Shown: positions 4,592-24,000, numbered from the stretch's first letter. The stretch is 24,000 nt of DNA from Candidatus Uhrbacteria bacterium RIFOXYA2_FULL_40_9 (GCA_001791615.1 MGEY01000052.1:1-24000), one strand, 5' to 3'. Notes: generated from the sequence alone by a model not told the origin. A program made the numbers and translations.

Positions 4592-4592
4592 A

Positions 4593-6328: not shown

Positions 6329-6334
6329 ATTATA
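6329..6334 (-). promoter_or_regulatory. Consensus -10 hexamer TATAAT only 9 nt upstream of the nrdR ATG
   Basis: Minus strand reads ...aaaatgcggTATAATagcagtactATGagatgtcc. I see no convincing -35 (a T-run) and no Shine-Dalgarno. Confidence 0.35.
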
Positions 6335-6397
6335 CCGCATTTTTCCTGAAGAAAAAAAGATTTGCCCCCTCTTCACAGAATATCAGAATTATTCTGT

Positions 6398-6426
6398 TTC
6401 AAAAACACCCCAAACGCGGGGTGTTT
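6398..6426 (-). terminator. Rho-independent terminator downstream of ftsZ
   Basis: Minus strand reads AACACCCC-gcgttt-GGGGTGTT followed by TTTGAAAC. A GC-rich 8-bp stem about 15 nt after the ftsZ stop. Confidence 0.7.
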
Positions 6427-6440
6427 CTTTTTTCTTTCAG

Positions 6441-7691: not shown

Positions 7692-7756
7692 AAATTGTTT
7701 CAAACTGAACAAATCAATTGTTCAAAAATAGCTTTCTTAAGCTGAAATACTTCTTA

Positions 7757-7785
7757 AATTTACTGAGTCATCAAGGTACTGTCAA
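7757..7785 (-). promoter_or_regulatory. Putative sigma-70-type promoter for ftsZ
   Basis: Minus strand TTGACA (rc 7780-7785), a 17-nt spacer, then TAAATT (rc 7757-7762). It lies between the ftsA terminator and the ftsZ start. Confidence 0.5.
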
Positions 7786-7833
7786 TCATTTGGTAGACAA
7801 AAATTGTGTTCACAAAGGCAAAACTGTTCTCAA

Positions 7834-7864
7834 CAAAAACAAAAAACAGGAGATCTTCCTGTTT
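7834..7864 (-). terminator. Rho-independent terminator downstream of ftsA
   Basis: Minus strand reads AAACAGGA-agatc-TCCTGTTT followed by TTTGTTTTTG, about 28 nt after the ftsA stop. Confidence 0.75.
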
Positions 7865-7891
7865 CTTATGTTATCCACATTTAAACATCTT

Positions 7892-9148: not shown

Positions 9149-9206
9149 AGATCTAATAATGATTTATCACCTTTAAAGTAATTTTAGTATACCTGAGAGC
9201 GAAAGA

Positions 9207-9572
9207 CTAAAACAAGGAGAGAATATGGGGAAGAAAAATAATCACCCCAATCAATGCAGCTATAAAAGATGATACAAGAACTGCTCCAGCCATCATATCT
9301 TTCATATCTTTCACAGCTGGATGAATCCGTGGCTTAAATGTATCGATGATTCTTTCAAAAACACTGTTGATAAGTTCCAAAACAAGCACTGAACCAACAA
9401 GCAAAAACAAAATAATTCTTTCAAACACGACAAGATCAAAAACCATAGCAAGTAGGAGAACAAGACATCCAGAAAACAGTTGAATACGAAAACTTTGTTC
9501 TGTAAAAAAAACAAGTCGAATTCCTCGAAAGGCATGGGAAAAACTATGAAAAAGTTGTCTGACTTTAATCAT
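9207..9572 (-). CDS. dgkA: Diacylglycerol/undecaprenol kinase family (DgkA-like) integral membrane protein
   Basis: 121 aa with three hydrophobic helices. Motifs FRGIRLVFFTEQSFRIQL, LELINSVFERIID and VKDMKDMMAGAVLV match the prokaryotic DAGK family. ATGA overlap with the ybeY stop, the classic ybeY-dgkA order. Confidence 0.85.
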   Translation of the reverse strand: MIKVRQLFHSFSHAFRGIRLVFFTEQSFRIQLFSGCLVLLLAMVFDLVVFERIILFLLVGSVLVLELINSVFERIIDTFKPRIHPAVKDMKDMMAGAVLVSSFIAALIGVIIFLPHILSLF

Positions 9573-10042
9573 ACTGGAGAAATTATACCAAAGGTAGAAA
9601 GGAGCTTTTTTTGAAGAATAAACATTTTTTCTGCTTGTTTTATGGTTTGATGTTCGTGTCCGAAAAGATGAAGAGACCCATGAATCAGGAGAAAAATAAG
9701 TTCTTTTCTAGCAGAATGTTTTGCTTCTTTTGCTTGCTTCTTTGCTTGAGGATAACACAATAAAATTTCTCCCATCACTTTTTCCATCTCTGGAAAGGCG
9801 TCTTTATTATCCTCAAAAGAAAAAGAAAGAACATCCGTCACACGATCTACCCCACGATACGTTTTATTATACGCTTTTATCTCCTTTTCACTGATAAAAG
9901 CAACGGAAATAAACACAGGTTTTGTTACTTTTAATTGATGACTTATCTCCTCTGCAACCTGTTTTATCATTCTTTCTGGAAGATGTTGCCCTCCGGAAAG
10001 TTGTTTTTGATTAAAAATGAACGTAATCACAAAATTATTCAA
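9569..10042 (-). CDS. ybeY: rRNA maturation endoribonuclease YbeY
   Basis: Zinc motif HGSLHLFGHEH, plus TDVLSF and EILLCYP. The start is either TTG 10042 (8-nt overlap with the upstream gene) or GTG 10030 (4 nt after its TAA). Confidence 0.9.
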   Translation of the reverse strand: MNNFVITFIFNQKQLSGGQHLPERMIKQVAEEISHQLKVTKPVFISVAFISEKEIKAYNKTYRGVDRVTDVLSFSFEDNKDAFPEMEKVMGEILLCYPQAKKQAKEAKHSARKELIFLLIHGSLHLFGHEHQTIKQAEKMFILQKKLLSTFGIISPV

Positions 10043-11024
10043 AAAAAGAAAAACTATTCAACATCATCTGAAAAGTTTGCAAATAATCAACGGTTCCTTT
10101 AATGCCTGTATCATAGCGAAATCGATAAACTCTTTCCCCTATCTCTACATAGGCTTTCAACTGATCTTCTGTTATCAACATCTGATATCCCTGTTTGGTC
10201 ACAGAAGTATAAACGTTTTCAATACCTTCACGTTGAAACTCCTCAGTAACATCTTCTAAACTTCGATCTATGAGAGAGAGATAAAATTGTTCACCAGTTG
10301 TTGACTCAAGACGAATCTCATCTGTTTCTTCTAAAGACCAAGTGGTTGGATGGTAAAAAAAGAAATTCCCTGCCCAAGTAAACACCGTAACCGTTTTTGA
10401 ATCTAAAAGAGTGAGAGGAGAAAGTCCTTTTGGATGATAGCCATGAAAAACTTCATTTCCGTCAAGAAATCCATCCGCATCTGTATCTGGTAAACGACTA
10501 TCTGTTCCATAAATAAGTGTTTCTTCAAGATCTGTAAGTCCATCACTATCAGAATCTTTTCCTGGAGAAACAGGTGCGGTAAAAAGATCAGAAGGCTCTT
10601 CAATGACAGGTTCTTCAAAAACTTCTTCAATAGGTGGAATAACCTCCTCTGTTTGTTGAGGGGGACGTGCTGTGGTAACAGGCTCTTGAGAAATATCTTC
10701 TTGTTTTGGAAGACTTTTTACAAGAATAAAACCAGCAATAGCAAATCCAACAATCACAATCGCTCCAACAATGATCAATTTTTTAGAAATGAGTGTAACT
10801 CTCTTCCCTGAAGGTTTTTGTGCAGGCATCTTAGGAAGTTCTTTCTTTTTTTCGGGAGGAAGAGTTTTTTTCACAGGAGTTGAAATCACCTCTTTTTGTT
10901 TAATAGTTCCTGAAGCCCCATGTCGATACTCTGACGGCATGGTAAATATAAGCGAATCCCCAGTGGTTGCTGGCTTTTGCGTGTTTGGTGGAAGTTGAAT
11001 ACGTGGCATTTCATTCTCTGGCAT
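10035..11024 (-). CDS. Single-pass membrane protein with TSP3-like Asp-rich Ca-binding-type repeats and an unassigned about 140-aa C-terminal domain
   Basis: The track ORF (to 11147) overlaps the upstream gene by 100 nt, so it is trimmed to ATG 11024 (alternative 11009). TM helix LIIVGAIVIVGFAIAGFILV, a P/E-rich linker, DSDSDGLTDLEE and DTDADGFLDGNEV (10440-10560), then a beta-rich tail (TVFTWAGNFFFYHPTTWSLEE...). Confidence 0.8.
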   Translation of the reverse strand: MPENEMPRIQLPPNTQKPATTGDSLIFTMPSEYRHGASGTIKQKEVISTPVKKTLPPEKKKELPKMPAQKPSGKRVTLISKKLIIVGAIVIVGFAIAGFILVKSLPKQEDISQEPVTTARPPQQTEEVIPPIEEVFEEPVIEEPSDLFTAPVSPGKDSDSDGLTDLEETLIYGTDSRLPDTDADGFLDGNEVFHGYHPKGLSPLTLLDSKTVTVFTWAGNFFFYHPTTWSLEETDEIRLESTTGEQFYLSLIDRSLEDVTEEFQREGIENVYTSVTKQGYQMLITEDQLKAYVEIGERVYRFRYDTGIKGTVDYLQTFQMMLNSFSFFE

Positions 11025-11046
11025 ACAAACCGTTGAGGAAAAAGAA

Positions 11047-11703
11047 TTACAAAGTAGGGACTTCAAATAATTTACCTGATCCATTTGGATTGTAACCAGC
11101 ATCAACTTCTGCTCCATCAAGGTATCCATCTTCATCTGTATCCGCATCTAAAGGATCGGTTTCGTAAAGAGTGATTTCTTCTTTATCAAACAGTCCATCT
11201 TTGTCTGTATCACTGCTTCGGAAATCTGTTCCAAGCTCGGCCTCCTCAGCATCTGTTAATCCATCTTTATCTGTATCCAATCCTGGAATCTCTTGTGGTT
11301 CTGTTTCCACTTCTTCTTGCACTACAGGAACTTCTTGAGTGGTTGTTTCTTCAACGGATTTTGAAACATCTGGGAGTGTTGTTGATTTTGGAGTACGCGA
11401 AGAAAGAAGAAGATAAGAAAGAGAGGCGGCTGCGACAATCACCACCAAAATAGCAATGAAAAGAATAATGATTTTCAACACTAGTGTTTTTTCTTTTGTG
11501 TTCAAAGGAGCAGATGACTCAAGGGATGGATGCTTTGGTAAAGAAAGTGGTGGTGCTACTGGCTTCATCGTGGGATTCTTCACAGGAGTAGAGTGTGAAG
11601 AAGTTTCTGGTAAAGAAGCTGTGGGTGGAACAACAGAAGGACCGTCTTGCTCTGTTTGAGCAAAAATGTCTTCAGGTTCTTTAGGGGTAAGATCATCAAA
11701 CAT
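11047..11703 (-). CDS. Single-pass membrane protein with three to four TSP3-like repeats
   Basis: N-terminus MFDDLTPKEPEDIFA, a P/S-rich cytoplasmic segment and TM helix IIILFIAILVVIVAAASLSYLLL. An acidic linker is followed by DTDKDGLTDAEE, DTDKDGLFDKEE and DTDEDGYLDGAEVDAGYNPNG (11080-11290). Confidence 0.8.
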   Translation of the reverse strand: MFDDLTPKEPEDIFAQTEQDGPSVVPPTASLPETSSHSTPVKNPTMKPVAPPLSLPKHPSLESSAPLNTKEKTLVLKIIILFIAILVVIVAAASLSYLLLSSRTPKSTTLPDVSKSVEETTTQEVPVVQEEVETEPQEIPGLDTDKDGLTDAEEAELGTDFRSSDTDKDGLFDKEEITLYETDPLDADTDEDGYLDGAEVDAGYNPNGSGKLFEVPTL

Positions 11704-11752
11704 AGAAAAATGTTAGAAAATATGAAATTTTATTGATTATTGTGACCCTTTT

Positions 11753-12613
11753 TTATTTGCCTGCTACTATGAGCGGACTATACCCTGCTCTCACTTCTGC
11801 TCCATCAAGGTATCCATCCCCATCTGTATCTGGATTAAGGGGATCTGTAAAATAGGTGTTTACCTCTTCTCCGTCAGAAAGACCATCACTGTCAGAATCT
11901 GCATTGACATCACTTGTCCCAAAACGCATTTCTTGCAATTCATCAAGCCCATCTCCATCACGATCACCAATTCCAACCACATCTTCACAAGAAGCAATAA
12001 GATTTGTATCTGTAATTTGCTGACAAATATCTGGATCTTTTGCCATAATGGCCTGCTCCATTAAAAGAACTTGAGCACAATAAGAAGAATCTCCTGTGCG
12101 CTCAAAACAATTCTCTGAGGTCAAAGGTCCTGCAAGAACACGCAAACATCCTTCTTGTTTTTCTGCATCCAAAATATTCTGACAATCCTTTTCCTTTCCG
12201 CTTGCAAGCGCTTGAGAAAGGTAAAGAGCATCCGCACATATTTGTTGAGTTTGAACATCTATAATCTCTTTACAAAAATCCACATTCTCACGATCACGTG
12301 CCACACTCCAGACACATTCATCAAAAGCATCTCCTTCAAGAACTTTGCATATCTCTACGGCTCCGAGCTTTTGTGCATAAGAACCAATAGCCCGTGTTTG
12401 ACAAGTTTCTTGATTTTCAACCCCTTCACATTCCTTCAAAAGGGCTTGAACTTCCGATTGTTGAGTTGCTTCAAGTACTTGATGGGTTTTCCAGGATCGT
12501 GTGAAAAGAATGGTTCCAAGAATAAGCACAATCACAAACACAATGGCACCAACAACCCATTTCCAAGAAATTTCGTGTGAAGGCAAACTTCTTATTGGTT
12601 CAAGTGTATTCAT
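11753..12613 (-). CDS. Single-pass membrane protein with paired-cysteine repeats followed by TSP3-like repeats
   Basis: ATG 12613 forms an ATGA overlap with the TGA stop of the giant ORF (12610-12612). The track start is TTG 12622. TM helix WVVGAIVFVIVLILGTILF. About six repeats of C-x10-13-C (DFCKEIIDVQTQQIC, DCQNILDAEKQEGC, DICQQITDTNLIASC...). Then DRDGDGLDELQE, DSDSDGLSDGEE and DTDGDGYLDGAEVRAGYSP. Confidence 0.8.
   Translation of the reverse strand: MNTLEPIRSLPSHEISWKWVVGAIVFVIVLILGTILFTRSWKTHQVLEATQQSEVQALLKECEGVENQETCQTRAIGSYAQKLGAVEICKVLEGDAFDECVWSVARDRENVDFCKEIIDVQTQQICADALYLSQALASGKEKDCQNILDAEKQEGCLRVLAGPLTSENCFERTGDSSYCAQVLLMEQAIMAKDPDICQQITDTNLIASCEDVVGIGDRDGDGLDELQEMRFGTSDVNADSDSDGLSDGEEVNTYFTDPLNPDTDGDGYLDGAEVRAGYSPLIVAGK
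11793..11830 (-). repeat. 38-nt segment 36/38 identical to 11105-11142 (the 3' ends of two adjacent TSP3-repeat genes)
   Basis: acttctgctccatcaaggtatccatc[cc/tt]catctgtatc occurs in both genes and encodes DTD(G/E)DGYLDGAEV. This indicates paralogy or gene conversion between neighbours. Confidence 0.85.
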
Positions 12614-15600
12614 AAAGGACAATATTCAAATTGGAAATCTTCAAAACGCATGGTTCCTTCTCCATTAAACTCAACACGCAAAGGAATCGTGAATTCAGAA
12701 GATTCACAAATAAATGCTTCTGGGAATGGGAGAGATCTATCATTTCCTTCAGAAATAACACCGGTGGTTGTGATGGTTGTGCTTCCACTTTCCGTTGTAA
12801 GGGTCATTGTGGCTCCGACGATCGCATCTGCAATGGCTTCGTACATGGTTGTGATTCCTTCGGCGTCAGAAGCTTGATAGGCATATTGTGTCGCATGACA
12901 ATCGCTTGCATCACTCCAATCTGTTCCACATTCCTCACTGGAACAATGTGCCATATAGCCTTCAACGGAAGAGCTAGTCGCAATCACTGCGGAATAAAAT
13001 TGAATACTTGGATTTGCCCCAATAAGCTCTTCACGAATTTCTTGAATACATCCACTCTTATCCGTACCACAAGGTAATCCATCTAAATAAACCGTTGGAG
13101 CTCCATCTGAAAGAAGCACGATAATTTTTGTCGGCGCTGTTGAAGAACTAACAAATAAATCAATCGCCTCTTGAAGACCTGAAGCAGTTGGTGTGCCAGT
13201 ATCCAATCTTGTGAGATATCCCTCAATCGTGGACACTAGTGAACTTTCAGATGTGCTAAATGTTTGATCAATGGTAACAGCCGTGCCATTAAAACTTACA
13301 AGCCCAATATGAAGCGTGACCCCCAAAGCACTCGCGGCATCAAATAATTCTGCTATAGAAGCACTTGTTGCTTCAACAACAGGATAAATACGTGTTGATT
13401 CAATCTCAATAAAACCATCGGCGCCAAAAGGAATCCTCGTTCCTTCTGGGTTCACATACATACTATCAGACAAATCTGTCACAAAGACGATATCAATATC
13501 ATTTGGAACAACATCATCTGCTTCAATATCAGCGGTAAGGGAGACTCCTACAGAACAAGCAGGAAGATAGATCACTCCATTATCAGGTGATTCTCCGGAT
13601 AAATAACGATATAAATCAATATATTGCTGTTTACTTGCCCCAGAAAGTTCACTTTGAACTTGCAGAGAAACGGTTTCATAAGAGAAAGGACAGCTAGATG
13701 CACAATCACTTGCACAAACGGGTTGCACACACGTTCCCCCTGTAGCACAACTTTGTGCATCTGCTCCTGTAGCACCAATCGTACAATAATCACCGTTATC
13801 CTCGCCTCCATTGCAAACACCTACATTCAAACAGGTATATATTCCACTTGTTGTCCCAACAGCACTCGAAGCACAGGTATTACTCACCGCACGAGTATCT
13901 GCATCAAAATAACGATAAGGCAAAACGGTTCCATCACAATATTCTCCTCCATTAATGGTTCCGTCTCCACAATAAGCGCCTGAACTTGTCTTATACTCAC
14001 AAGTGACCGTGCAATACTGACACATCCCTCCGTAAGAAGCCGTGCAAAGATCACCATTCTCGCTTCCTTGATCACAAGATTCTACGCCGGTATACACATA
14101 ATCGTCTCCACAAACATTCCATTCACAGGTATTCAAACAGGCATCATTGTTGCTCGTGTTCCCGTCATCACAAATTTCATCACCTTCTAAAACCCCATTT
14201 CCGCATTGTTGATCTCCGATTACACAAGCAGACCACGTATTCCAAACACATCCAGAACTACAGGTGCGATAACGATAGGCTTGATATCCATCAATGGTTC
14301 CACAAGCAACATACGTTCCTCCACAAGTAGATCCATCCTCACAATCAGCGCTTGTAGTGCAGGTATTTCCATCAGCACAAAGTGCTCCTTCCCATTCTTC
14401 ATACTCCCCATCACAAACTTCTGTTCCATTAAGAATTTGATCTCCGCACGTTGGACCAGGAGTAGAACAATCAAAGGCACAACTTTGCGCATAGGTACTC
14501 ACATATTGCCCATTGGATCCTCTTGTAGACGTGATGTCACAATGTGTATACGCCCAACTACTTGTATCTGCTTTAACCGTGCTCCAATTGGCTGTGGTTC
14601 CACAATCACATTGTTCTCCACCAGCTAAATATCCATCACCACAATAAAAGGAAGTGGTGTAAGTACAATTATCATCGCAATACCCATAGGTTCCATTCAA
14701 TACTCCGTCATCACAAATTTCTGTTCCTTCAACCGTGCCATTTCCACAACTATAAGCTATGCACTCTGTCCCCGCTGTCTCGGCTTCCAAAGCTGTTTGA
14801 TATCCTAAACAATCATCATCACAACGAATAGTGATCAAACCACTCACAACCGTTACTCCATCATCAGCAAGAGTAGTGCAACTTGCGGTGTCTGTATCCC
14901 CAAGTTCACAAGTTTCAATAGAAGGATTCAAAATCCCATCTCCACAAAGTCCTGTGTTTCCTACGGTTGTCCCGGAACAATACATTTCTGTTGAAATAAA
15001 TCCTATTTGCAATGGAATGGTTGTATATCCACCGCTATATTCGACACTGAGCGTTGCACTATCTGTGGAATCTGTATCAATCGGATAGGCCCAAGCGCCT
15101 CCGTTATATTCAAGCTCAAGAGAAAGAATAAACTCTTCTCCACCAATACCGCGATATCCATACACATGAGATCCACTTGGACATTTAAACAATCCTTGCG
15201 TGCCATTCCAACAAGAATCAGAATCATACCCATCATCTGTACATTGATAAAACGCATTAAGAGGATCAACAGGAAGAGTTTCTTGAAGTTCATTTGAAAG
15301 TACCGCATTCCAAGAAGGCCAATTACTAATCGTCATGGAAGGAATATAGGACCCCGCACTGATAAGTGGAACATCTGGAACACAGGTCTCTGTTCCAAGA
15401 CAATCATCATCCTGCGTACAACTTGTATCTGTGGTTACAGAACAATGAGCATACGTTTCTCCATGAGTATTGATTATGTCAAGAATATCTACGGCATCAG
15501 AAAGACGCTTGGTATCGCGTTGTAACTTGGCTTTTTCTGCATCACAATAAGAAGTTCTTGCAGTTCCAAGAGGACAACTGTTATCCGTTACTCCTGTGCA

Positions 15601-18600
15601 AGACTCTCCTGTGATAGAACAGGCATAGGTCTCATTTGCTTGTGCTTCACAAATCTCTGTTCCTCCACAATCTCCATCCCATTCACATGCAATAAAATCT
15701 CCGCTTGCATTATGAATATATCCATTAGTATTTGCGCACAAATTCACATCAGAAATGACATCAGTGTTTGCATTGAACTGCCAATTTCTCAAAATTCGAT
15801 CAAAAATCTCCAATGATTCTTCACCTGCATCTTCATTGTAGGAAATCACGTACATGTTTGGATAAATACTATTTCCACTCTGATTTGTTGCAAGGACATA
15901 TTGTGTGGTTCCTTCTTCTACGGCTTGATAACCATCTAACGTGGTTTGTGAAGGAGAACCAGAAAATCCCTGATCTTCATACCACTGTAAAGGAGAAGTA
16001 TAGTCATCATTTGTAACCACACGAACACCTAAAGCGTCACTGGTTCCTTGTACTTGGAAAAGAAGTTCCTGATAAATACTAGAAGAAATAGAATGCACTT
16101 CAATTGGCATACCTGTGCTATTTCCTAAAGCAGGAAGATCATCATCTGTTCCCTCATCCCCTTCATCACGACAATAAGAGAAAGAAAAATTTGTGGAAGA
16201 ATCAAGGTAGTGATAATTATTTCCAGAAATCCATGGATTTTCACAAAGCATAGCCCAGATAGGAAGTTCTCCTTGCACAGTTTCTCTTTGTACCGTACAG
16301 GCTTCTCCAGCGCCCGTATCACAATCATCAGAAGTCTCACAACTTATTCCGCTTGTTTCACAAAGATGCTCGGTGGAAAATTCATAGGTATCTATTGTCA
16401 CAGTGGCTTGGGCAAATACCGTTGCTCCTCCATCCTCGCCCTCAGCCGTTACAAAAGCATCGTGATCATCCAAAGCAAGTTCATCAGAACCAGATTCTGA
16501 AGCAGTGGTTGTTGTGACCACGGTTTCTTCAGTAGAACCCCATGTCCACTCCCAAGCATAATCCTCTGAAGACGTGATTTCTTCTTGTACCGCTCCATCA
16601 AGATGATAAGCGGTTGCCATAAAGTAGTGAACTTCTCCTATTTCAGTAAAAAATTCTTCACTGGCACTTTCGTACTCTGCATAGTCAGTGCGTCCAAAAT
16701 CAACAACAACAACTTGATCGAGTGAACAAATTTCATTACCCACTGTAAAAGAGGTCATGATTTCAGAAGGATTTACCAACCCCACTCCAAACGTATTTAA
16801 AACTCCTTCATCAATAGCATCAGTCAGATCACTATCTCCAAGAACAACAAGTCGATACGTGGCTCCTTCTTCTAAAATACCAGAATAACGAACAGAAACT
16901 CGAACTCCACCATCTGAGACATCACTTTTTTGATACGTTACAGGCACCGCACACACCGTTGTTTCTGCAGAAACTTCTCTTCCAAAAAAACTCAAAACCT
17001 GTTCACGAATCCAGTGCCAGGCACGTGCAAAAACTCCTTCTGGAGGTTGTACATACACGGTTGTTTCCCAACCAGTTGGACAAACCGTTCCAGTATATTC
17101 AAGGTAAATTTGTGGATCTGTTCCGTTTCCAGAAGGATCAAGAGAGTCTAAATCCACATCTTGGGAAAACTCTACCCAAAGCGCGGTATTTTGACAGACA
17201 TTTGTTGCACCACTTTCTGGATAAACACTTCCCGTTTCAGGACGCAAATAACAACATCCACCCGTGCCACAGCCATAACTCTCTTCAGGAGAACCACAAT
17301 CAGCATCTGTTTGACAAGAACACTCTACAGAAAGTAGACCTTCTGCTGTCACACGTTCTGCTTCTGTTTGAATGGTTGTAACCGCATAATGTGTAATTGG
17401 ATCAACTTCTTCTGCAACTGTTTCACTCACTTGCGCAACCGCAAAAGCACCGGAACTGATGGAACTCGTTGTTTCACATTCTTCATAAGTACTTTGAAGA
17501 CCATCTCCACAATAAGAAGGAATAAGACCATCAACAGAAGCCCCTTCATTTAAACAAATCGCTGAGCACCCATCTCCTGCCTCAACATCAAATAAATCAC
17601 AATCTTCTGCGTCATTTAAATCATCGCCGTTATAATCTGTTATACCATCTCCGCAACAAGGAGTGCTTATAGCTTGACAAGTATCAGTACTCTCACAATC
17701 TCCATCGCTAATACAATTCACGCCATAACTTGTGCCATCAAAACAAGCAAACACACAAGCACTTGCTCCCTCAAAAAGACAACGAGAAGAACATCCATCT
17801 CCAGAACTTGTATTTCCATCATCACAATCTTCTCCATTTCCAATATCTCCATCTCCGCAAGTTGCTTCAATATCTGTGATAGCTACTGCTCCCTCAAAAA
17901 GACAGCGAGAAGAACATCCATCTCCAGAACTTGTATTTCCATCATCACAATCTTCTCCTCCTGTTCCCCTATAGTAATCTACCCGCCCATCTCCACACGT
18001 TGTCGTTGAACCTTCATTTTGACAAGCTAAAGAACACCCATCACCACTAACACTATTTGAATCATCACATTCTTCTCCCACGCTCACAAATCCATCTCCA
18101 CAACATCCACCCGGAACAAGAGAACAAATATCTGTCTGTTCCACACAAACATCAGTGACTTCTGCGCAAACCTCTTCAGTTTCTGTGTCACAATCTGCAT
18201 CTGTCAAACAACTCAAACCACTTGTTTCACATGCATAAGTCGTACAACTTGCGTCTGTGGTACAAACCGCTCCACCTATTTGACAAAAGAATGTGCTACA
18301 AGAAGCATCTGTGGTACAGGTTGCTCCAGAATCTTCACAAGCAAAAGGACAAGCACTTGTTCCTTCCCAAAAACAAGCATCAGAACATCCGCCTTCTCCA
18401 TCACAATCTTCTGCTTCATGATATCCATCTCCATTATAATCAGTGATTCCGTCTCCACACACAGGATCTAAAAGAGAAACCGTTGCCCCAGTATTTAAAC
18501 AACTAGCAGAACACCAAGCAGGAAGATCTGTTGAAAGACTAATTGCTCCTGACTCAAGCATTTCTGCAACCGTGGGTTGTGTTGAAAGCCAAGGCTCCCA

Positions 18601-21600
18601 AGAATACGAAGAGGATTGCAAAACTTGTCCGGAGACTGCGCAATCATCTGGAGCTCCGTAAGGAACAGCTTCATACACTTGTCTTGCTCCGATCCTATCT
18701 AATGTCGCTTGTTCTGGATCAAGTTCAATACGATCAATTCCACAACTAATATCACTATTTTTTGTGGTAAAAATCCAAGAAAAATCAGTTGGATAATAGG
18801 CATTTTCTGAAAAAGGCCCACCATAATTTGATCCTGAATCCGCAAGTGCGACCCCTGAAGTTGAGAGAAGATTTCCAGAAAGCCAGACACGATAATGCGT
18901 ATTTGCTTCAAGAGAAGGACAGGCGCTTGTGCTTATGGTGACTTTCTGTGTTGTGGCCGTTCCCACAGAAGCACACGTTACTTCTGTAAGCTCACCTGGA
19001 GCACAAAGGGCATCTTCACATTGATAAAGCTTAACATTAGATGAGTTGAACAAACTGGTATCCATGAGCGCTTCAAATTCTGCATAAATACCTGCATTTA
19101 CACAGGCAGTTGAACAATTTGGAACATAATCACCCACTTCTGGATCAGAAAAATCAATAATCAGGTCTGCATCCCCCACAGGTTGAGTACTTGCACTCGT
19201 AACCTGAGATTCAATAAGAGCTGGGATACCCGGAGATGTTTCATCCAAAGCAGTTACTATTTTTTGACAAGACCCTGTAACCGCGGAAGGCTCACTCACT
19301 TTTGCAGATGAATCACTTGATGACCAATAAAGTGTTTCTCCTGTGCAAGGACTAAGAACACATTCATCAGCATCAGAAACAAGGGAAGCGAGATACCCGA
19401 CAGATTCATTAAGTGTTCTCGCTGTATAAGGATCAGGGCTTACATACACATCACCAACTTCACAAGAGGCATCTGTTGGAGCTGTGGTAAATGACCAAGT
19501 AAAATCTTCTTCTAAATAGCCCTCACCCGCGGAAGCATCTGCTTGAATACGTCCTGCTTCATCCCCTCCAAGCAACGTTACTTGATAGGTGGTGGATGTT
19601 TCAAAATCTTCTGCATGAGATGCCGTAAAACCTCTTGTTCCTACATTAAAACTCCACACAAACGGTACTTCTTCTAATGTGTCACACACATCTGTACAGG
19701 TAAAAGTTCTTCCACTTGCGGTCACACAGGTTCCTCCGACAATTGCGGAACATTTTTCTAAAACCAGATTTGAACTCGTGAGGCTTGAGCCCTTCATATC
19801 CATATCAAACGTCGCTCCGATATCCGCATTTACGCAAACAGACTCTGCGGGACTCCATCCTTCCCAAGGAGAAGGAGAAGCAATTCCTTCTGTTGAACTA
19901 CAAGCAACTCTCACCCTTGGGGTGTTTGCAATCGTTCTTGTTGTAAATTTATACGCATAATGCGAATCAATCACAGTCTCAGGACATCCTCCGGTTGTAA
20001 AACTCGCACATGTTCCATCAGAACAACACTCTTCTTGAAGTGAACAAATGCTGGAATCTTCCACACAATTACCCACTTGAAAATTCAATGGATTAGATCG
20101 ATATCCTTCAGCTGATGTCACTGTAACAGGACCTGTTTGGGCATTATCTGGAACTTCTGTTTCAAGCACAGATCCATCATCCCAAGAAGTGTAAAGAGAA
20201 GAATCAATAGTTTGATTTAAATAATACGTCACACTTCCATCCGTTGTTTGAAAATTTTCTCCATAAATATCCACCAGGCTTCCCACAGGACCAGAATCTG
20301 GATCAAGTAAACAAATGGATGGACCTGGTTCACCAGCAATCACCTCAAAAGCAACAGATTCAGAAGTTTGTCCATCTGTGCCACGATAAATATGAATAGT
20401 GTGTGAACCTGTTTCAAGAATATCTTCTGTTGCTGTTGAATATTGCTCAGGCACTTTGATCAAAATACTTGTGTCTGTCCAATATTCGCTTCCGCAAGCT
20501 ACTGGAAAAACACTATCTCCAATGGCAGTGACTCCATCAAGGCTACTGCCAGTATTGTTTGTAAAATAGACGAGTCCATCAGCATGTCCAAACTCGGTTC
20601 CATAAATGGTGACATATTGCCCAAGAGGGCCCCAGTTTGGCGCGTCTTCACATGTTCCAGTTCCACAATCTTCATCTTCGGTACAAACCATTCCATCATG
20701 TTCTCCTTCGAAGCACGCTTGCCAACCTGTTTCTACATAGGAAATAACCGGAGGAGCATCACTAGATGTTGTAGAAACAGTAAAATCAATCTCATTTGAT
20801 CCTTGTCGAATAGATTCACATGTTCCTTCACCAGTCCCACAATCTTCATCTTCACTACAAGCTTCTAAAGTTTCACTACACCATGCTGTCACACAAGATT
20901 CACTCAGAGATTCCCCACAATCCACATCCTCTGAACAAACATCTCCTGAAGTTTCACAAAAATAATCTCCGGCAAATACTTGAACATCATAAGCTCCATC
21001 ATCAAGCAATGGAGTCACAGCAGAAATTTCTGAAGTCTCCCAATGTAAATAGGAAGTGGGTTCATAATAATCAAAATAAAGGGCTGAACTTCCTTGAAGT
21101 GCGCCAAGATTATCTCCTAAAATTGTCACATCATCATTTCCTTCCCCTGTAGAAGGGGTGATGGAACAAAGTCCTGGCCGTTCAATCGCATTGACATCAA
21201 AATCTGTAATATATGGACCATAATCATCATCCGTACGGTCGTAATCTCCTTCTGATTCATCACTGCTCACAACTGTCACTTGGATTGGTCCGTCGATTGC
21301 TCCTTCTGGAACTTGCACAATGATCTGATCTGCTTGCCAAGCAAGAGTTCCTCCACAGCTATAAGCACTTACTTCAACTTCATCTCCGCTTTCTGTTCCA
21401 AGAAAGGTAATACTTCCAGGATCTGTGCCAAACCCTTCTCCAGAAATGGTAATTAAATTACCAGGAGCTCCATTTCCTGCACGCACACGAGAAATTTTTG
21501 GAACAGTGACGCAAATCCCCTCTTCACAAGTTCCACTAGCACATTGAGAATCTTCAGTGCATGCATCCCCGCCACATGCTCCACAATAATATTCACTACT

Positions 21601-22812
21601 TATATCTCCTCCACAGTTCAGACCGGTTTCTCCCAAATCAGTATCAATTACATCATTGGCACAATTTGCTGCTCGAAGAGTAATAGTGATGCGATCAGAA
21701 GTATCACTGTTCCCTGCACAATCTGATCCAACTGCATAAATCGCATAGGTTTCATTTGTGAGATATCCTTCTGTATTCCACTCTCTTGAAGTATCTGAAT
21801 TGAAATAGTTTAACGCAGAAAGAACCCCATACACACTCAGATCTAATCCTGCGGTTTCTACTTCCTCAGAATCAACATAAAAATTAACAGAAGAAACACC
21901 CACATCGTCAACGGCTTCTGTTTGTAAAAGTTCATTCTCTCCTGTGGCATACACATTTCCTTCATCTTCTGGAGCTTCCATGGTCATGGTCGGCCCGCTG
22001 ACATCAATCGCGGCATCTGCTCCAATCGTAAAAGAATAAGAACAAGGATAGGAAGAACTACAAGAGAGACTTCTTCCACTGGTACTGCGCAAAATAGTCG
22101 GACTTACCGTAGCAATATAAGAAGTACTGGAAGAAAAACAATGTTCTGTTTCAAAACCTGTTTCTGAACAAAATGCATCTGGCGTAAATGTTACGGTATA
22201 ACCTGAGGTCGTAAATGTTCCTTCAACCTCTTCTCCTCCATCCACTTCAATGCTGATCGCGCTTTCCACGGTTGAGGAAGACACTCTTTGAGAAAAAACA
22301 AATTGTAATTGCAAATTCTTCACTGACTCTGCGCAATCTGTATTCAAAGACGCAAGATAAAAGGTTGAAGAAGTACTTGGATTTGGATCTTCTGAATAAT
22401 CCGTTGGATCTTCTGTGATAATTCTTCCTGTTGCTTCTTCAAGGGAACGAAGAACAAATTGGGTGATGGTGAACGCAGAAAGAACAATAACCAAACCGAT
22501 CAAGGCATTGATGATCATTCCTCTTGCTTTGGTCACACGTTCTTTGTCTCCTCCTGCTGTCATCCAAAGAAATCCGGCATACACCACAAACACCACAGCA
22601 ACTATTCCAAGCAAAGAAATAGCAGTTCTAATGAGACGGGCAATAATGACCGTAATATCCACACTTGTGGTAAATCCGGCAATTTCTCCAAAGGTCTCCA
22701 TTTGTGATTGCATTTCTGTTTGCGCGAATGTTGGCAAAGCAACACAGAAGCCTGTGATCAAAAGCATGCCAAAAAGGATGCTTGCTAATTTTTTAGATCG
22801 TAAACGGCACAT
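12610..22812 (-). CDS. Giant (3400 aa) pilin-anchored, cysteine-rich, multi-domain surface protein with C-terminal vWA domain
   Basis: A single uninterrupted 10.2-kb reading frame with ATG at 22812. Recognisable motifs run end to end, which argues against a chance ORF. See the domain-level entries below. Confidence 0.9.
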   Translation of the reverse strand: MCRLRSKKLASILFGMLLITGFCVALPTFAQTEMQSQMETFGEIAGFTTSVDITVIIARLIRTAISLLGIVAVVFVVYAGFLWMTAGGDKERVTKARGMIINALIGLVIVLSAFTITQFVLRSLEEATGRIITEDPTDYSEDPNPSTSSTFYLASLNTDCAESVKNLQLQFVFSQRVSSSTVESAISIEVDGGEEVEGTFTTSGYTVTFTPDAFCSETGFETEHCFSSSTSYIATVSPTILRSTSGRSLSCSSSYPCSYSFTIGADAAIDVSGPTMTMEAPEDEGNVYATGENELLQTEAVDDVGVSSVNFYVDSEEVETAGLDLSVYGVLSALNYFNSDTSREWNTEGYLTNETYAIYAVGSDCAGNSDTSDRITITLRAANCANDVIDTDLGETGLNCGGDISSEYYCGACGGDACTEDSQCASGTCEEGICVTVPKISRVRAGNGAPGNLITISGEGFGTDPGSITFLGTESGDEVEVSAYSCGGTLAWQADQIIVQVPEGAIDGPIQVTVVSSDESEGDYDRTDDDYGPYITDFDVNAIERPGLCSITPSTGEGNDDVTILGDNLGALQGSSALYFDYYEPTSYLHWETSEISAVTPLLDDGAYDVQVFAGDYFCETSGDVCSEDVDCGESLSESCVTAWCSETLEACSEDEDCGTGEGTCESIRQGSNEIDFTVSTTSSDAPPVISYVETGWQACFEGEHDGMVCTEDEDCGTGTCEDAPNWGPLGQYVTIYGTEFGHADGLVYFTNNTGSSLDGVTAIGDSVFPVACGSEYWTDTSILIKVPEQYSTATEDILETGSHTIHIYRGTDGQTSESVAFEVIAGEPGPSICLLDPDSGPVGSLVDIYGENFQTTDGSVTYYLNQTIDSSLYTSWDDGSVLETEVPDNAQTGPVTVTSAEGYRSNPLNFQVGNCVEDSSICSLQEECCSDGTCASFTTGGCPETVIDSHYAYKFTTRTIANTPRVRVACSSTEGIASPSPWEGWSPAESVCVNADIGATFDMDMKGSSLTSSNLVLEKCSAIVGGTCVTASGRTFTCTDVCDTLEEVPFVWSFNVGTRGFTASHAEDFETSTTYQVTLLGGDEAGRIQADASAGEGYLEEDFTWSFTTAPTDASCEVGDVYVSPDPYTARTLNESVGYLASLVSDADECVLSPCTGETLYWSSSDSSAKVSEPSAVTGSCQKIVTALDETSPGIPALIESQVTSASTQPVGDADLIIDFSDPEVGDYVPNCSTACVNAGIYAEFEALMDTSLFNSSNVKLYQCEDALCAPGELTEVTCASVGTATTQKVTISTSACPSLEANTHYRVWLSGNLLSTSGVALADSGSNYGGPFSENAYYPTDFSWIFTTKNSDISCGIDRIELDPEQATLDRIGARQVYEAVPYGAPDDCAVSGQVLQSSSYSWEPWLSTQPTVAEMLESGAISLSTDLPAWCSASCLNTGATVSLLDPVCGDGITDYNGDGYHEAEDCDGEGGCSDACFWEGTSACPFACEDSGATCTTDASCSTFFCQIGGAVCTTDASCTTYACETSGLSCLTDADCDTETEEVCAEVTDVCVEQTDICSLVPGGCCGDGFVSVGEECDDSNSVSGDGCSLACQNEGSTTTCGDGRVDYYRGTGGEDCDDGNTSSGDGCSSRCLFEGAVAITDIEATCGDGDIGNGEDCDDGNTSSGDGCSSRCLFEGASACVFACFDGTSYGVNCISDGDCESTDTCQAISTPCCGDGITDYNGDDLNDAEDCDLFDVEAGDGCSAICLNEGASVDGLIPSYCGDGLQSTYEECETTSSISSGAFAVAQVSETVAEEVDPITHYAVTTIQTEAERVTAEGLLSVECSCQTDADCGSPEESYGCGTGGCCYLRPETGSVYPESGATNVCQNTALWVEFSQDVDLDSLDPSGNGTDPQIYLEYTGTVCPTGWETTVYVQPPEGVFARAWHWIREQVLSFFGREVSAETTVCAVPVTYQKSDVSDGGVRVSVRYSGILEEGATYRLVVLGDSDLTDAIDEGVLNTFGVGLVNPSEIMTSFTVGNEICSLDQVVVVDFGRTDYAEYESASEEFFTEIGEVHYFMATAYHLDGAVQEEITSSEDYAWEWTWGSTEETVVTTTTASESGSDELALDDHDAFVTAEGEDGGATVFAQATVTIDTYEFSTEHLCETSGISCETSDDCDTGAGEACTVQRETVQGELPIWAMLCENPWISGNNYHYLDSSTNFSFSYCRDEGDEGTDDDLPALGNSTGMPIEVHSISSSIYQELLFQVQGTSDALGVRVVTNDDYTSPLQWYEDQGFSGSPSQTTLDGYQAVEEGTTQYVLATNQSGNSIYPNMYVISYNEDAGEESLEIFDRILRNWQFNANTDVISDVNLCANTNGYIHNASGDFIACEWDGDCGGTEICEAQANETYACSITGESCTGVTDNSCPLGTARTSYCDAEKAKLQRDTKRLSDAVDILDIINTHGETYAHCSVTTDTSCTQDDDCLGTETCVPDVPLISAGSYIPSMTISNWPSWNAVLSNELQETLPVDPLNAFYQCTDDGYDSDSCWNGTQGLFKCPSGSHVYGYRGIGGEEFILSLELEYNGGAWAYPIDTDSTDSATLSVEYSGGYTTIPLQIGFISTEMYCSGTTVGNTGLCGDGILNPSIETCELGDTDTASCTTLADDGVTVVSGLITIRCDDDCLGYQTALEAETAGTECIAYSCGNGTVEGTEICDDGVLNGTYGYCDDNCTYTTSFYCGDGYLAGGEQCDCGTTANWSTVKADTSSWAYTHCDITSTRGSNGQYVSTYAQSCAFDCSTPGPTCGDQILNGTEVCDGEYEEWEGALCADGNTCTTSADCEDGSTCGGTYVACGTIDGYQAYRYRTCSSGCVWNTWSACVIGDQQCGNGVLEGDEICDDGNTSNNDACLNTCEWNVCGDDYVYTGVESCDQGSENGDLCTASYGGMCQYCTVTCEYKTSSGAYCGDGTINGGEYCDGTVLPYRYFDADTRAVSNTCASSAVGTTSGIYTCLNVGVCNGGEDNGDYCTIGATGADAQSCATGGTCVQPVCASDCASSCPFSYETVSLQVQSELSGASKQQYIDLYRYLSGESPDNGVIYLPACSVGVSLTADIEADDVVPNDIDIVFVTDLSDSMYVNPEGTRIPFGADGFIEIESTRIYPVVEATSASIAELFDAASALGVTLHIGLVSFNGTAVTIDQTFSTSESSLVSTIEGYLTRLDTGTPTASGLQEAIDLFVSSSTAPTKIIVLLSDGAPTVYLDGLPCGTDKSGCIQEIREELIGANPSIQFYSAVIATSSSVEGYMAHCSSEECGTDWSDASDCHATQYAYQASDAEGITTMYEAIADAIVGATMTLTTESGSTTITTTGVISEGNDRSLPFPEAFICESSEFTIPLRVEFNGEGTMRFEDFQFEYCPL
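12815..13500 (-). other. Giant protein C-terminal von Willebrand factor A domain with intact MIDAS
   Basis: DIVFVTDLSDSM (DxSxS), LDTGTPTASGLQEAIDLF (MIDAS Thr) and KIIVLLSDGAPT (MIDAS Asp). This is followed by an about 65-aa beta-like tail ending FEYCPL. Confidence 0.8.
13690..14950 (-). other. Giant protein cysteine-rich repeat block II
   Basis: CGDGILNPSIETCE, CGNGTVEGTEICDDGVLNGTYGYCDDNC, CGDGYLAGGEQCDCG, CGDQILNGTEVCDG, CGNGVLEGDEICDDGNTSNNDACLNTC, CGDDYVYTGVESCDQGSENGDLC and CGDGTINGGEYCDG, followed by a Cys-dense linker down to CASDCASSCPF. Confidence 0.7.
17480..18459 (-). other. Giant protein aa about 1452-1777: cysteine-rich repeat block I (CGDG-x-CDDGN-x-GDGCS-x-C, DUF4215/Myxococcus Cys-rich-repeat-like)
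   Basis: CGDGITDYNGDGYHEAEDCDGEGGCSDAC, CCGDGFVSVGEECDDSNSVSGDGCSLAC, CGDGRVDYYRGTGGEDCDDGNTSSGDGCSSRC, CGDGDIGNGEDCDDGNTSSGDGCSSRC, CCGDGITDYNGDDLNDAEDCDLFDVEAGDGCSAIC, CGDGLQSTYEECE, plus C-x-TDA-x-C mini-repeats. Confidence 0.7.
17764..17958 (-). repeat. Two 72-nt direct repeat copies (17764-17835 and 17887-17958), 71/72 identical, period 123 nt, inside the giant ORF
   Basis: Both copies read tgctccctcaaaaagaca[a/g]cgagaagaacatccatctccagaacttgtatttccatcatcacaatcttctcc. They encode the identical peptide EDCDDGNTSSGDGCSSRCLFEGA twice. Other repeat units of the same family are diverged at the DNA level. Confidence 0.9.
20071..21501 (-). other. Giant protein aa about 438-914: four IPT/TIG-like beta-sandwich modules separated by short Cys-rich inserts
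   Basis: PKISRVRAGNGAPGNLITISGEGFG...IIVQVPEGAIDGPIQVTV; PGLCSITPSTGEGNDDVTILGDNLG...; GQYVTIYGTEFG...ILIKVPE...; PSICLLDPDSGPVGSLVDIYGENF...ETEVPDNAQTGPVTVT. Confidence 0.7.
22438..22812 (-). other. Giant protein aa 1-125: signal peptide plus two-helix TrbC/VirB2-type (T4SS_pilin, PF18895-like) membrane hairpin
   Basis: The signal peptide MCRLRSKKLASILFGMLLITGFCVALPTFA|Q is followed by ARLIRTAISLLGIVAVVFVVYAGFLWMTAGGDKERVTKARGMIINALIGLVIVLSAFTITQFVL. The pattern is hydrophobic helix, GG-D/N-x-E-x3-K-A, hydrophobic helix, as I recall it for CPR and Gram-positive conjugative-type pilins. Confidence 0.65.
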
Positions 22813-22843
22813 GCATTTAGTCTTAAAATTTCAAAAGAAAAAT

Positions 22844-24000
22844 TTATGGAACAGGTAAAACAAACCCAGAAGTAGACGTTTCTGTTTCTCCATCAGTCAC
22901 ACAAGGGGTTGACTGACGTTCTCCATCACAACAATACACTTCTCCAGATGCAATTCGACCATCATCTTCTAAAGAAGTACATCCAATGATAGTGCTAGAT
23001 GAAGCAGAAGGCCCATAAGCAGGATACATACAAATCTGCCAGCTACTTTTCACTCCATTTTCAATAACAGGATAGTAATCCCACCCTCCATCTGTTTGAC
23101 TCACAAAAGTTGGGTGATTCATCGTGATAAGAGAATAAGTTTTATCTGTACTTACTTCATTTCGAAGAGAAAACCACATTTCATACAATGGATCAGGCCA
23201 CAGAGAAAGAGCTTCGCTATTTAAGGTGGAAGATTTCATGGTGGTATTAAAAGAAATCGTCACAGGTTGTTGCTGAATGACATCCCCTTCACTAATTCCT
23301 GGATCTATTAAGGTGATTTCTGGAACCGTATCGTTCACATTGTCTGTAGTATCAAATTCCCAAGAATAATCATCATTCGTTATTGTGGTTATTTCACCTA
23401 CTAGAGAAACTCCATCTGTATCTGATCCTGCGGCTTGTCCATCTCCATCTCCATCTAAAGAATTTCCACATACATCTATAAGTCCGTCATACTCTGTTCC
23501 TCGAGGAACTGCTTGTGGTGCATCATCCCCCACAGAAGCGGCATGAGCTTCTACCACAATGGTTTCAAGAGGTGGAAGACAATAAATGGTGTCACCACAA
23601 GGATCTTCCCCACAAGCATCAAAGGTGGTGAAGCCAACAGTTCGATACCCATTACTAATTTCATAGGTCCCTTCAACCAGAGAAGGAACGGAATCAGAAA
23701 TTTCAATATTGGAAAAATAATCCCCTAGCTCTATAGAATAAACACCAGTTGCGGCAACAGGATCCATGGCTTCATTAAAAGTCATTTCAATGGTGATGTT
23801 GCGATCGTATGGAGTGGTTGATTCAACCGGAATCACAGAAACGACTTGTGGAGGTGTGAGATCAACTTCTGTTGAAACTTCAAACGTCCATTCGTAGCCA
23901 TCAGAATAGCGTCCGGAAAAAGCAAGCGTTCCATCTGCCTTTTCAATGGTTGTTTTAAGAACAATGGTATAGTTTGTATCTTCAAGGGGACTTCCTAACA
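22844..24000 (-). CDS. Large Ig-like (SbsA/Big_5-type) surface protein, C-terminal part (5' end beyond the window)
   Basis: The track starts it at GTG 23836, but I translated the frame upstream and it stays open to 24000 (...YEWTFEVSTEVDLTPPQVVSVIPVES...). DLTPPQVVSVIPVESTTPYDRNITIEMTFNEAMDPV and VPEITLIDPGISEGDVIQQQPVTISFNTTMKSSTL are Big_5-type module starts. Cys-rich C-terminus. The stop lies 31 nt before the giant ORF start. Confidence 0.8.
   Translation of the reverse strand, partial: LGSPLEDTNYTIVLKTTIEKADGTLAFSGRYSDGYEWTFEVSTEVDLTPPQVVSVIPVESTTPYDRNITIEMTFNEAMDPVAATGVYSIELGDYFSNIEISDSVPSLVEGTYEISNGYRTVGFTTFDACGEDPCGDTIYCLPPLETIVVEAHAASVGDDAPQAVPRGTEYDGLIDVCGNSLDGDGDGQAAGSDTDGVSLVGEITTITNDDYSWEFDTTDNVNDTVPEITLIDPGISEGDVIQQQPVTISFNTTMKSSTLNSEALSLWPDPLYEMWFSLRNEVSTDKTYSLITMNHPTFVSQTDGGWDYYPVIENGVKSSWQICMYPAYGPSASSSTIIGCTSLEDDGRIASGEVYCCDGERQSTPCVTDGETETSTSGFVLPVP

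Follow-up and report, generated by a model that had tools for sequence, protein, structure and literature searches.

We describe here a run of five genes, G1 to G5, of Candidatus Uhrbacteria bacterium RIFOXYA2_FULL_40_9 (Patescibacteria, or candidate phyla radiation, CPR), studied in a window of 24,000 nucleotides (nt), i.e. the whole stretch of DNA that was analysed (GCA_001791615.1, MGEY01000052.1:1-24000). They encode a giant protein of 3400 residues (G2), a shorter protein ahead of it (G1) and three small membrane proteins behind it (G3, G4 and G5, called S1, S2 and S3 below). We take the locus for a cell-surface module that is found throughout the lineage of Candidatus Uhrbacteria and relatives and is inherited vertically. 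It is real, strongly conserved and uncharacterised, and it represents a variant of known adhesin and pilin kinds, not a categorically new system. Judging from the sequences, it probably builds a metal-dependent surface fibre for attachment. In its full form the explanation that we prefer, and to which we give about an even chance, is a conserved surface fibril or adhesin module anchored by a membrane hairpin, with an exchangeable tip of the MIDAS type (metal ion-dependent adhesion site) and with S1-S3 as membrane-proximal accessory or anchoring proteins.

The DNA of the window comes from a groundwater contig and carries its genes on the minus strand, to which every real gene between 24000 and about 1829 belongs. 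G1 (22844..>24000) is represented by its C-terminal 384 codons only and continues past the window edge. It is followed by G2 (12610..22812), S1 (11753..12613, 286 residues), S2 (11047..11703, 218 residues) and S3 (10035..11024, 329 residues), the start of the last gene at 11024 being backed by the aligned N-termini of 23 homologues. The gaps between the five genes are 31, -4 (an ATGA overlap), 49 and 22 nt, exactly as stated in the initial annotation of the window. That annotation set the limits of the block at 10035-24000, which could not be kept, as G1 runs off the window and the tightly spaced, terminator-free run extends beyond G5 through three housekeeping genes recognised by Pfam matches, namely ybeY (9569..10042), dgkA (9207..9572) and ftsA (7892..9148), all on the minus strand. 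The ybeY gene starts either 4 nt past the G5 stop codon or with an 8-nt overlap with G5, dgkA and ybeY overlap by 4 nt, and dgkA is separated from ftsA by 58 nt. Identical proteins are also encoded on the NCBI contigs LBZG01000007.1, LBYS01000015.1 and MGFC01000040.1 and in Rifle JGI assemblies. All five bear hypothetical or automatic names at NCBI, and the literature that we searched, on PF18895/T4SS_pilin, on Uhrbacteria together with pilins and on giant CPR surface proteins, does not describe the locus.

Conservation of the locus and its predicted transcription unit

A profile scan with one genome per species returned 388 relatives, and the best 80 loci, all retrieved via the S3 profile, were analysed by classifying their stop-to-stop open reading frames (ORFs) with BLASTP against the window proteins. 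Gene order proved to be conserved: a G2 homologue (24-41% identity) lies directly ahead of the small proteins, which carry a transmembrane (TM) helix and thrombospondin type 3 (TSP3) repeats, in all 64 species-level loci that extend upstream. Of these loci, 58 have three small proteins and 6 have two. G5 is then directly followed by ybeY in 78/78 loci with downstream DNA, and ybeY by dgkA and ftsA in 76 of them; in the other two no dgkA ORF was detected and ftsA came directly after ybeY. None of the junctions from G2 to ftsA bears an insertion longer than 300 bp, and the spacing from the stop-to-stop ORF of G2 to that of the first small protein has a median of -13.5 nt across loci. The number and type of small proteins shift between clades while their place directly behind the giant is kept, and proteins of the G5 family were never found away from a giant gene (64 loci, FtsA identity 48-85%). 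Five independent annotated neighbourhoods (G5 identity 36-49%) show the same order, i.e. a giant of 3306-3592 residues with an N-terminal T4SS_pilin domain, two TSP3 proteins, the G5 homologue, ybeY, dgkA, ftsA, ftsZ, nrdR, htrA and pyk, with synteny lost after pyk. The initial annotation had said that a lack of conserved order, small proteins encoded apart from giants or failing domain searches would tell against its idea; all three were looked for and none was encountered, the loci having been sampled via the S3 family.

A G1-like protein with a pilin and a Big_5 domain stands directly ahead of the giant in two further species (loci L095 and L096), and in L095 this adjacency is kept though upstream synteny is lost. 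As G1 precedes the giant even there, the conserved unit is G1-G2-S1-S2-S3-ybeY-dgkA-ftsA. On the source contig (L013, 6873-7964, upstream of G1) and in L096 (8845-9856) the surface genes are directly preceded by rpsU-yqeY, just as they are directly followed by ybeY-dgkA. These genes are neighbours in Bacillus subtilis, and the layout recalls the Bacillus cluster rpsU-yqeY...phoH-yqfF-ybeY-dgkA-era, with the surface genes as if in place of phoH/pgpH. In L095, the region in place of rpsU-yqeY (1-9670) encodes RhuM, an N6/N4 methyltransferase, a ResIII/SWI2-SNF2-family (DEAD-like) helicase, a zeta toxin and MazG-like proteins.

The claim that no terminator separates the five genes was borne out by a scan that left all four gaps from G1 to G5 without a terminator-like site. 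Four such sites occur on the minus strand in 9000-24000, all of them within the G2 coding sequence, and the total for this region is 7 against 10.8 expected. We also considered that the organism might lack intrinsic terminators altogether, and rejected this idea: in 1-10100, the housekeeping half of the window, there are 22 sites against 7.8 expected, placed at gene ends after ftsA, nrtR and a PP2C gene. Since the organism does use such terminators, their absence over about 16 kb from G1 to ftsA is informative. The first strong intrinsic-terminator-like hairpin (7839..7869, minus strand) has a 13-pair stem followed by a T-run, lies 23 nt past the ftsA stop codon and is predicted to be the 3' end of the transcription unit. 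Beyond it, upstream of ftsZ, there is a promoter-like site, TTGACA-17-TAAATT (7757..7785, minus strand), recognised solely by its 10/12 match to the consensus. On the source contig no terminator was found between yqeY and G1 and a promoter-like site lies ahead of rpsU; the 5' end of the unit is uncertain. The predicted transcription unit is thus the same series of eight genes, from G1 to ftsA.

Relatives show the same pattern when scanned for a hairpin plus T-run within 130 nt after each stop codon. Terminator-like sites follow the giant gene in 1/64 loci, separate one small-protein gene from the next in 2/130 junctions, and occur between the last small-protein gene and ybeY in 4/78, between ybeY and dgkA in 3/76 and between dgkA and ftsA in 0/76, so that junctions from G2 to ftsA carry them at just 0-5%. 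The corresponding counts are 34/73 between ftsA and ftsZ and 17/58 between ftsZ and nrdR. The ftsA-ftsZ junction is interrupted in 14/73 loci and the ftsZ-nrdR junction in 4/58.

The ftsA-ftsZ spacer itself (7713-7891 in the window) is an insertion hot spot, which coincides with the predicted terminator/promoter boundary and accommodates heterogeneous genes in inserts from more than 300 bp up to 3.3 kb. Examples are L026 13319-14703 (with a PIN-domain toxin gene), L047 12978-15530 and L074 13470-16751; apart from PIN, the inserted ORFs belong to no family.

Architecture of the giant protein and its companions

G2 contains 187 Cys residues, 16% Asp+Glu and 2.7% Lys+Arg, a composition that fits an extracellular, disulfide-bonded, cation-binding protein. 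It begins (22453..22812, minus strand, as are all its parts) with a signal peptide (residues 1-30, cleavage at AFA|QT) and a two-helix hairpin of the VirB2/TrbC type (residues 53-120). Hydrophobic helices were placed at residues 9-27, 64-82 and 93-111 (approximate limits), and the charged loop of the hairpin reads GGDKERVTKARG. This part matches T4SS_pilin (PF18895; T4SS, type IV secretion system) with 36.7-38.7 bits against a cut-off of 26.6, while the NCBIfam model NF045849 reached 23 bits only against a cut-off of 40. A proximal immunoglobulin (Ig)-like stalk follows (19483..22326), with Big_5 (residues 163-262), Big_7 (274-358), 3-4 copies of IPT/TIG (about 428-823), a further Big_5 (989-1110) and short Cys-rich inserts. 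Next comes the first Cys-rich acidic repeat block of the CGDG...CDDGN kind (residues about 1440-1790; 17443..18495), in which TIGR02232 scored 107.8 bits (cut-off 20.8) in 4 stretches and DUF4215 39.9 bits; over the whole protein, DUF4215 (PF13948) scored 32.2 bits against a cut-off of 27. The initial annotation had taken such repeats for EGF-like, an assignment that we had to drop, as no EGF family was matched at E<=0.01 by EGF profiles and the repeats match DUF4215 and TIGR02232 (myxo_disulf_rpt) instead.

The central region (residues about 1900-2600, some 700 residues; 15013..17115) contains no recognisable family. A marginal, partial Big_5 touches its N-terminal edge (about 1858-1893; 24.2 bits when the segment is taken as a whole, with none of its stretches above threshold by itself), and searches of PHROGs and of PDB sequences gave no match to this region. 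The C-terminal part had no match in PHROGs either, and a PDB sequence search with the whole of G2 gave weak TIG-like matches only. Among orthologues (58 loci) the central region is covered at 0.96-0.98 with 23-45% identity. It is followed by the second Cys-rich repeat block (residues about 2620-3040; 13693..14955), with DUF4215 at 2851-2896, and with 42-48% identity where aligned this block is better conserved than any other part of G2. Over residues 1000-3000 the orthologues of the same 58 loci are colinear (coverage 0.84-0.99), and residues 2200-3000 are the best conserved. A word-indexed homologue search with residues 1-435 retrieved fragments and G1-like paralogues only, and no full-length giants.

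At the distal end (12613..13494) a von Willebrand factor A (VWA) domain (residues 3107-3241) is followed by a C-terminal beta-rich tail. Its scores are marginal, being for PF00092 25.6 bits with the whole protein and 29.6 with the segment (cut-off 23.8) and for PF13519 27.6 bits with the segment (cut-off 27). The MIDAS pattern DxSxS...T...D is intact (D3113, S3115, S3117, T3207, D3236), which predicts metal binding. These residues are DSSTD in 28 of 45 aligned orthologues, and most of the remaining ones are S/T variants. The VWA region aligns in 39/58 loci and is absent by BLAST in 19/58, a variation that Pfam confirms; deep clades have CarboxypepD_reg-like or unknown C-terminal modules in place of VWA. 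The initial annotation's assignments of pilin, TIG, DUF4215, Big_5 and VWA domains to G2 are all backed by profile matches above cut-off, and so is its picture of a giant with a membrane hairpin at one end and a VWA domain, predicted to bind metal, at the other.

Full-length G1, as found on the source contig, has 630-657 residues and begins with a signal peptide and a VirB2-like pilin hairpin, behind which stand three Ig-like domains of the Big_5 family. T4SS_pilin scores 29.6 bits with it (cut-off 26.6), and Big_5 scores 41.2 bits in the window part and 60.4 bits in the full gene. G1 and G2 are 40% identical over the first 131 residues, i.e. the signal peptide and the hairpin, and therefore the locus opens with two paralogous hairpin-anchored proteins. 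The ectodomains past the hairpin have about 500 and 3270 residues, sizes unlike those of small pilin subunits (about 100-190 residues). Neither the window nor the source contigs (32-38 kb) nor any of the flanks that we examined contained T4SS genes (virB4, virB6 or others); the locus as encoded is not part of a T4SS gene cluster.

The anchor itself is widespread. A full-library phmmer search with G2 residues 1-140 matched 33,882 representative proteins at E<=1e-3, of which 6,920 also passed E<=1e-10. Among the best 150 matches there were about 32 clusters (at 50% identity) of proteins of 3041-4834 residues with the domain at the N-terminus, as well as stand-alone pilins of 105-190 residues. 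The same 150 matches also included proteins with 2-17 tandem hairpins, or "polypilins", such as P0290 (1775 residues, 17 stretches), P0289 and P0293, and no description of such proteins was found.

S1, S2 and S3 have one strong hydrophobic (TM) helix each. Their TSP3 regions end with a common motif, DTDxDG(Y/F)LDGxEVxxGYxP, and the three are therefore paralogous in the TSP3 module. In S1 a short N-terminal stretch with few conserved residues (PWK) precedes the TM helix (residues 20-38), behind which come a helical-repeat ectodomain (about 60-213) and TSP3 DxDxDG motifs at 217, 239 and 262. The ectodomain is disulfide-stapled, with 10 invariant Cys; in the AlphaFold2 model it is all-helical, with a confidence score (pLDDT) of 88, and comparison of the S1 model with PDB folds gave no significant match, designed helical repeats being the best (E >0.2). 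Full-length homologues of S1 are known from Uhrbacteria only, while its TSP3 part matches diderm OmpA-family proteins with 45-67% identity.

S2, whose conservation was measured over 73 orthologues, starts with MFDxxxxxxPEDxF (11662-11703) and continues with a Pro-rich segment, a TM helix (about 74-100) and an acidic linker; its C-terminal half has TSP3 repeats at 143, 165 and 188 and a GYNPNGxGKL tail. A database name for S2 is "Gram positive anchor", and we rejected sortase anchoring, as the protein has no LPxTG motif; none of the five proteins has one. S3 carries FxMPxxYRxG at residues 27-36 (10917-10946), with M29, P30, Y33, R34 and G36 invariant in 24 sequences, then a TM helix (81-104), a Pro/Glu linker, TSP3-type repeats at 157 and 180 and a C-terminal domain (205-329) modelled by AlphaFold2 with pLDDT >90. 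Foldseek placed this domain closest to PsbP (9gnw_P, E 6.7e-5), Tsi3, CyanoP and Apa, with target TM-scores (a measure of structural similarity) of 0.4-0.56, and there was no sequence-family match; as modelled, the domain resembles the PsbP/Mog1-type binding fold, a likeness at the fold level only. The S3 family has 403 members, nearly all from Uhrbacteria.

The initial annotation saw TSP3 repeats in all three small proteins. This stands for S1 and S2, which match TSP3_bac (PF18884) with 35.2 and 47.5 bits (each with three DxDxDG motifs) against a cut-off of 25; S3 stays below it with 15 bits (E 0.023), having two DxDxDG motifs, and many of its homologues have a precomputed PF18884 hit. The family named at that time, PF02412, was not the one matched. 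In S2 and S3 the first repeat comes about 43-53 residues past the membrane, and because it is so close behind the helix the repeats would be located near the wall zone and not distally. The N-terminal motifs of S2 and S3 are predicted to be cytoplasmic and might dock a cytoplasmic protein. That all products are exported or membrane-anchored agrees with the signal peptide and hairpin of G2 and of full-length G1 and with the single TM helix of each small protein.

Proposed function and competing explanations

When these elements are put together, G1 and G2 would enter the membrane by means of a cleavable signal peptide and the VirB2/TrbC-like hairpin, and the parts behind the hairpin would project outside the cell. 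G2 would form a non-repetitive mosaic of an Ig-like stalk, two disulfide-rich acidic blocks, the central region and an exchangeable distal module; in the Uhrbacteria genome of the window, this module, a VWA domain with intact MIDAS, would be a divalent-cation-dependent ligand-binding tip. S1-S3 would cross the same membrane once, with the N-terminus inside, S1 adding a disulfide-stapled helical repeat and S3 a PsbP/Mog1-like binding domain, and they would work as membrane-proximal or wall-zone accessory or anchoring factors. The extended fibril, stiffened by disulfides and probably by Ca2+, would attach the cell via its tip to a partner cell or a surface. A ligand-recognition fibre would be expected to keep its stalk conserved and to exchange its distal module, as is seen among the G2 orthologues. 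It should be added that we infer surface exposure, metal binding, attachment and contact between the giant and the small proteins from sequence, and that host-cell attachment, proposed in the initial annotation, is suggested by the domain types. Surface appendages touching hosts were seen by cryogenic transmission electron microscopy of groundwater ultra-small cells (PMC7906910).

The initial annotation stated that no system of this composition had been described, which was too strong. Myxococcus xanthus CglD carries TSP3/COMP-like Ca-binding repeats, an EGF-like Cys-rich stalk and VWA/MIDAS, and acts with the VWA adhesin CglB; its function is Ca2+-dependent, and an interaction of the Ca-binding repeats with a VWA partner was proposed by the authors (bioRxiv 10.1101/2023.10.19.562135). 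By analogy of the extracellular modules, and with the G2 Cys-rich repeats matching the myxobacterial family TIGR02232, CglD is the closest described analogue of the module set. On the other hand, CglD unites all modules in one 1130-residue outer-membrane lipoprotein of a diderm, whereas here they are split between a hairpin-anchored protein of 3400 residues and single-pass proteins of a monoderm. The CglD profile NF033765 scored 15.8-25.8 bits against a cut-off of 400 and the MtsD profile NF047639 23.5 against 800, in repeat segments only, and the locus proteins are therefore not CglD members; in contrast to the Myxococcus gliding system, there are no Glt/Agl motor genes near the Uhrbacteria locus.

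Other likenesses are partial as well. VWA-tipped or modular pilus adhesins, such as RrgA of sortase pili, the Streptococcus sanguinis type IV pilin PilB and PilY1, also combine a filament or anchor module with a distal VWA/MIDAS, but G2 has neither LPxTG nor a class III (prepilin) signal, and its anchor comes from another pilin superfamily. The missing LPxTG means that the locus is not a sortase pilus. OmpA-family TSP3 proteins of Bacteroidota, Ignavibacteria and others share TSP3_bac repeats close to the membrane or wall, but they have a beta-barrel and the OmpA peptidoglycan-binding domain, whereas S1-S3 cross the membrane with one TM helix each, lack an OmpA domain and bring additional domains specific to the lineage. 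The giant repetitive adhesins SiiE, Bap and LapA and the 7651-residue one of Mobiluncus are likewise very large, acidic, Ca-associated surface proteins with Ig-like domains; they consist of long arrays of near-identical repeats and are T1SS (type I secretion system)-secreted or sortase-anchored, while G2 is an N-terminally anchored, colinear mosaic. The Tandem Repeats Finder detected no tandem repeat in 10000-24000, and as repeats are missing the locus is not a Bap/SiiE-type adhesin.

Several observations weigh against a joint attachment apparatus. The linkage of the five proteins is based on their sequences and gene order, and the relatives sampled are those 80 of 388 that the S3 profile matched best. 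With ybeY, dgkA and ftsA in the same conserved stretch free of terminators, co-transcription and synteny do not mark the five surface genes off as a single apparatus; what keeps them linked may be the way in which operons are built in a compact genome and not a common function. VWA passes its cut-off by a narrow margin (25.6 against 23.8 bits), and the domain is absent or unrecognisable in the close relatives L020, L024, L026 and L061 (FtsA 78% identical), in which S1-S3 are kept. Moreover, the giant is a single-copy, colinear, core-like gene that evolves at about the rate of ybeY (41% against 45% identity at FtsA 78%); an adhesin specific to a host would more typically diversify rapidly. The multi-component apparatus of the initial annotation thus finds support in the domains and the conserved order, while the housekeeping genes in the unit and the loss of VWA from relatives that keep S1-S3 speak against it. 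As for VWA and TSP3 as specific partners, this idea is unsupported: the small proteins persist without VWA and are therefore not VWA-specific partners.

On these grounds one might see in the locus a set of functionally independent envelope proteins, neighbours merely through the long polycistronic unit of a compact, syntenic genome between rpsU-yqeY and ybeY-dgkA, with the small TSP3 proteins as generic wall-zone Ca-binding spacers and with G1 and G2 as unrelated surface proteins. Such an explanation would fit the identical conservation and lack of terminators at ybeY, dgkA and ftsA, the persistence of S1-S3 where the VWA tip is absent, and the position of the cluster between the two gene pairs in the source genome and in L096; the TSP3 module is also generic, being commonest in OmpA-family peptidoglycan-associated proteins of diderms. 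It does not easily fit a G5 family that was never met apart from the giant in 64 loci, a small-protein set that varies by clade while staying directly behind the giant, the overlap of the G2 stop with the S1 start (ATGA) in the window, and the fact that the S1 and S3 families, in full length, occur only in the lineage with the giant. We thus take independence seriously and still hold it unlikely.

The pilin hairpin raises another idea, namely that G1 and G2 are VirB2-type pilins with grafted ectodomains, extracted by a T4SS encoded elsewhere and displayed either on a conjugative-type pilus or at its tip, where they would be the adhesin otherwise lacking in monoderm T4SSs. In F-type pili both pilin termini are exposed outside, and a C-terminal graft is sterically conceivable. 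PF18895 is above cut-off in both proteins, whose signal peptide, two-helix hairpin and tandem paralogy resemble the VirB2-like pilins of Patescibacteria T4SSs. Such pilins and pilin arrays are a peculiarity of these systems: a survey met the pilins in 1,948 assemblies, counted 441 arrays with 2-11 genes each and detected no PrgB-type adhesin (PMC12102498); G1-G2 would be a two-gene array of this kind. In Southlakia the T4SS and its pilin array are essential (PMC12857230). However, those pilins are small, whereas G1 and G2 carry large ectodomains and do not adjoin virB4, and no virB4, virB6 or other T4SS gene lies in the 38-kb source contig or in the flanks examined. A regular pilus lattice could not accommodate 3270 extra residues per subunit, which leaves at most a minor-subunit role, and the hairpin may be a plain membrane anchor. 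Taken together, this makes display on a pilus improbable. A link with cell division seems more improbable still: the cytoplasmic motifs of the S proteins would couple to FtsA or the divisome, and the giant would be a structural envelope protein or cell-cell connector made in step with division. The predicted transcription unit does end in ftsA, the motifs MFDxxxxxxPEDxF of S2 and FxMPxxYRxG of S3 are conserved, the gene of the giant is single-copy and colinear in the manner of a core gene, and images show ultra-small cells attached to one another in chains (PMC7906910). Nevertheless, ybeY and dgkA, which are unrelated to division, separate the small proteins from ftsA, ftsZ belongs to a separate unit, profile searches gave no similarity to known divisome proteins, and the S2 and S3 motifs have no known partner. 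One may finally combine these thoughts, with G1/G2 as T4SS-displayed modular pilins that provide the missing adhesin, the TSP3 trio as a Ca2+-dependent base and co-transcription with ftsA coupling the fibre to division; to this composite, too, we assign a low probability.

Returning to the hairpin-anchored attachment fibre that we prefer, the components of the locus are known domain types, and it is from them that we infer its significance. Three features are distinctive: the anchoring of a giant mosaic protein by a pilin hairpin, the invariant companion TSP3 proteins and a predicted transcription unit common with ftsA. The literature searched contains no case of a mosaic ectoprotein of 3,400 residues that is anchored N-terminally by a hairpin of the T4SS pilin type, has an exchangeable tip and comes with small TSP3 companions. 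Host and surface contact in Patescibacteria outside cultivated Saccharibacteria is largely unknown, and the locus would offer a concrete lineage-wide candidate. The anchor heads dozens of clusters of proteins of 3,000-4,800 residues and tens of thousands of other proteins, and with an anchor so widespread one case may explain a large class of "hypothetical" CPR surface proteins. The locus would also be the second bacterial example, after Myxococcus CglD/CglB, of the integrin/COMP-like module set, which bears on the occurrence of matrix-type modules outside eukaryotes.

Neighbouring genes and minor observations

Downstream of the surface genes the minus-strand series of the window runs ybeY, dgkA, ftsA, ftsZ, nrdR, htrA, pyk, nrtR and the PP2C gene, and Rfam detected no RNA family in the window. 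A plus-strand ORF of 372 residues (590-1708) has no family match and is probably spurious, because it overlaps a minus-strand isochorismatase gene (857-1666) that is annotated on the source contig. Also on the source contig (L013, 4110-6656), an 848-residue protein without a Pfam match is encoded between hisS and rpsU. Many records of metagenome-assembled genomes with the locus in ENA (L024, L025, L028 and others) are titled "uncultured Gammaproteobacteria bacterium", which looks like a placeholder or mislabel. In about half of the relatives (L015-L094) htrA lies between nrdR and pyk: nrdR is followed by htrA in 28 loci and directly adjoins pyk in 26.

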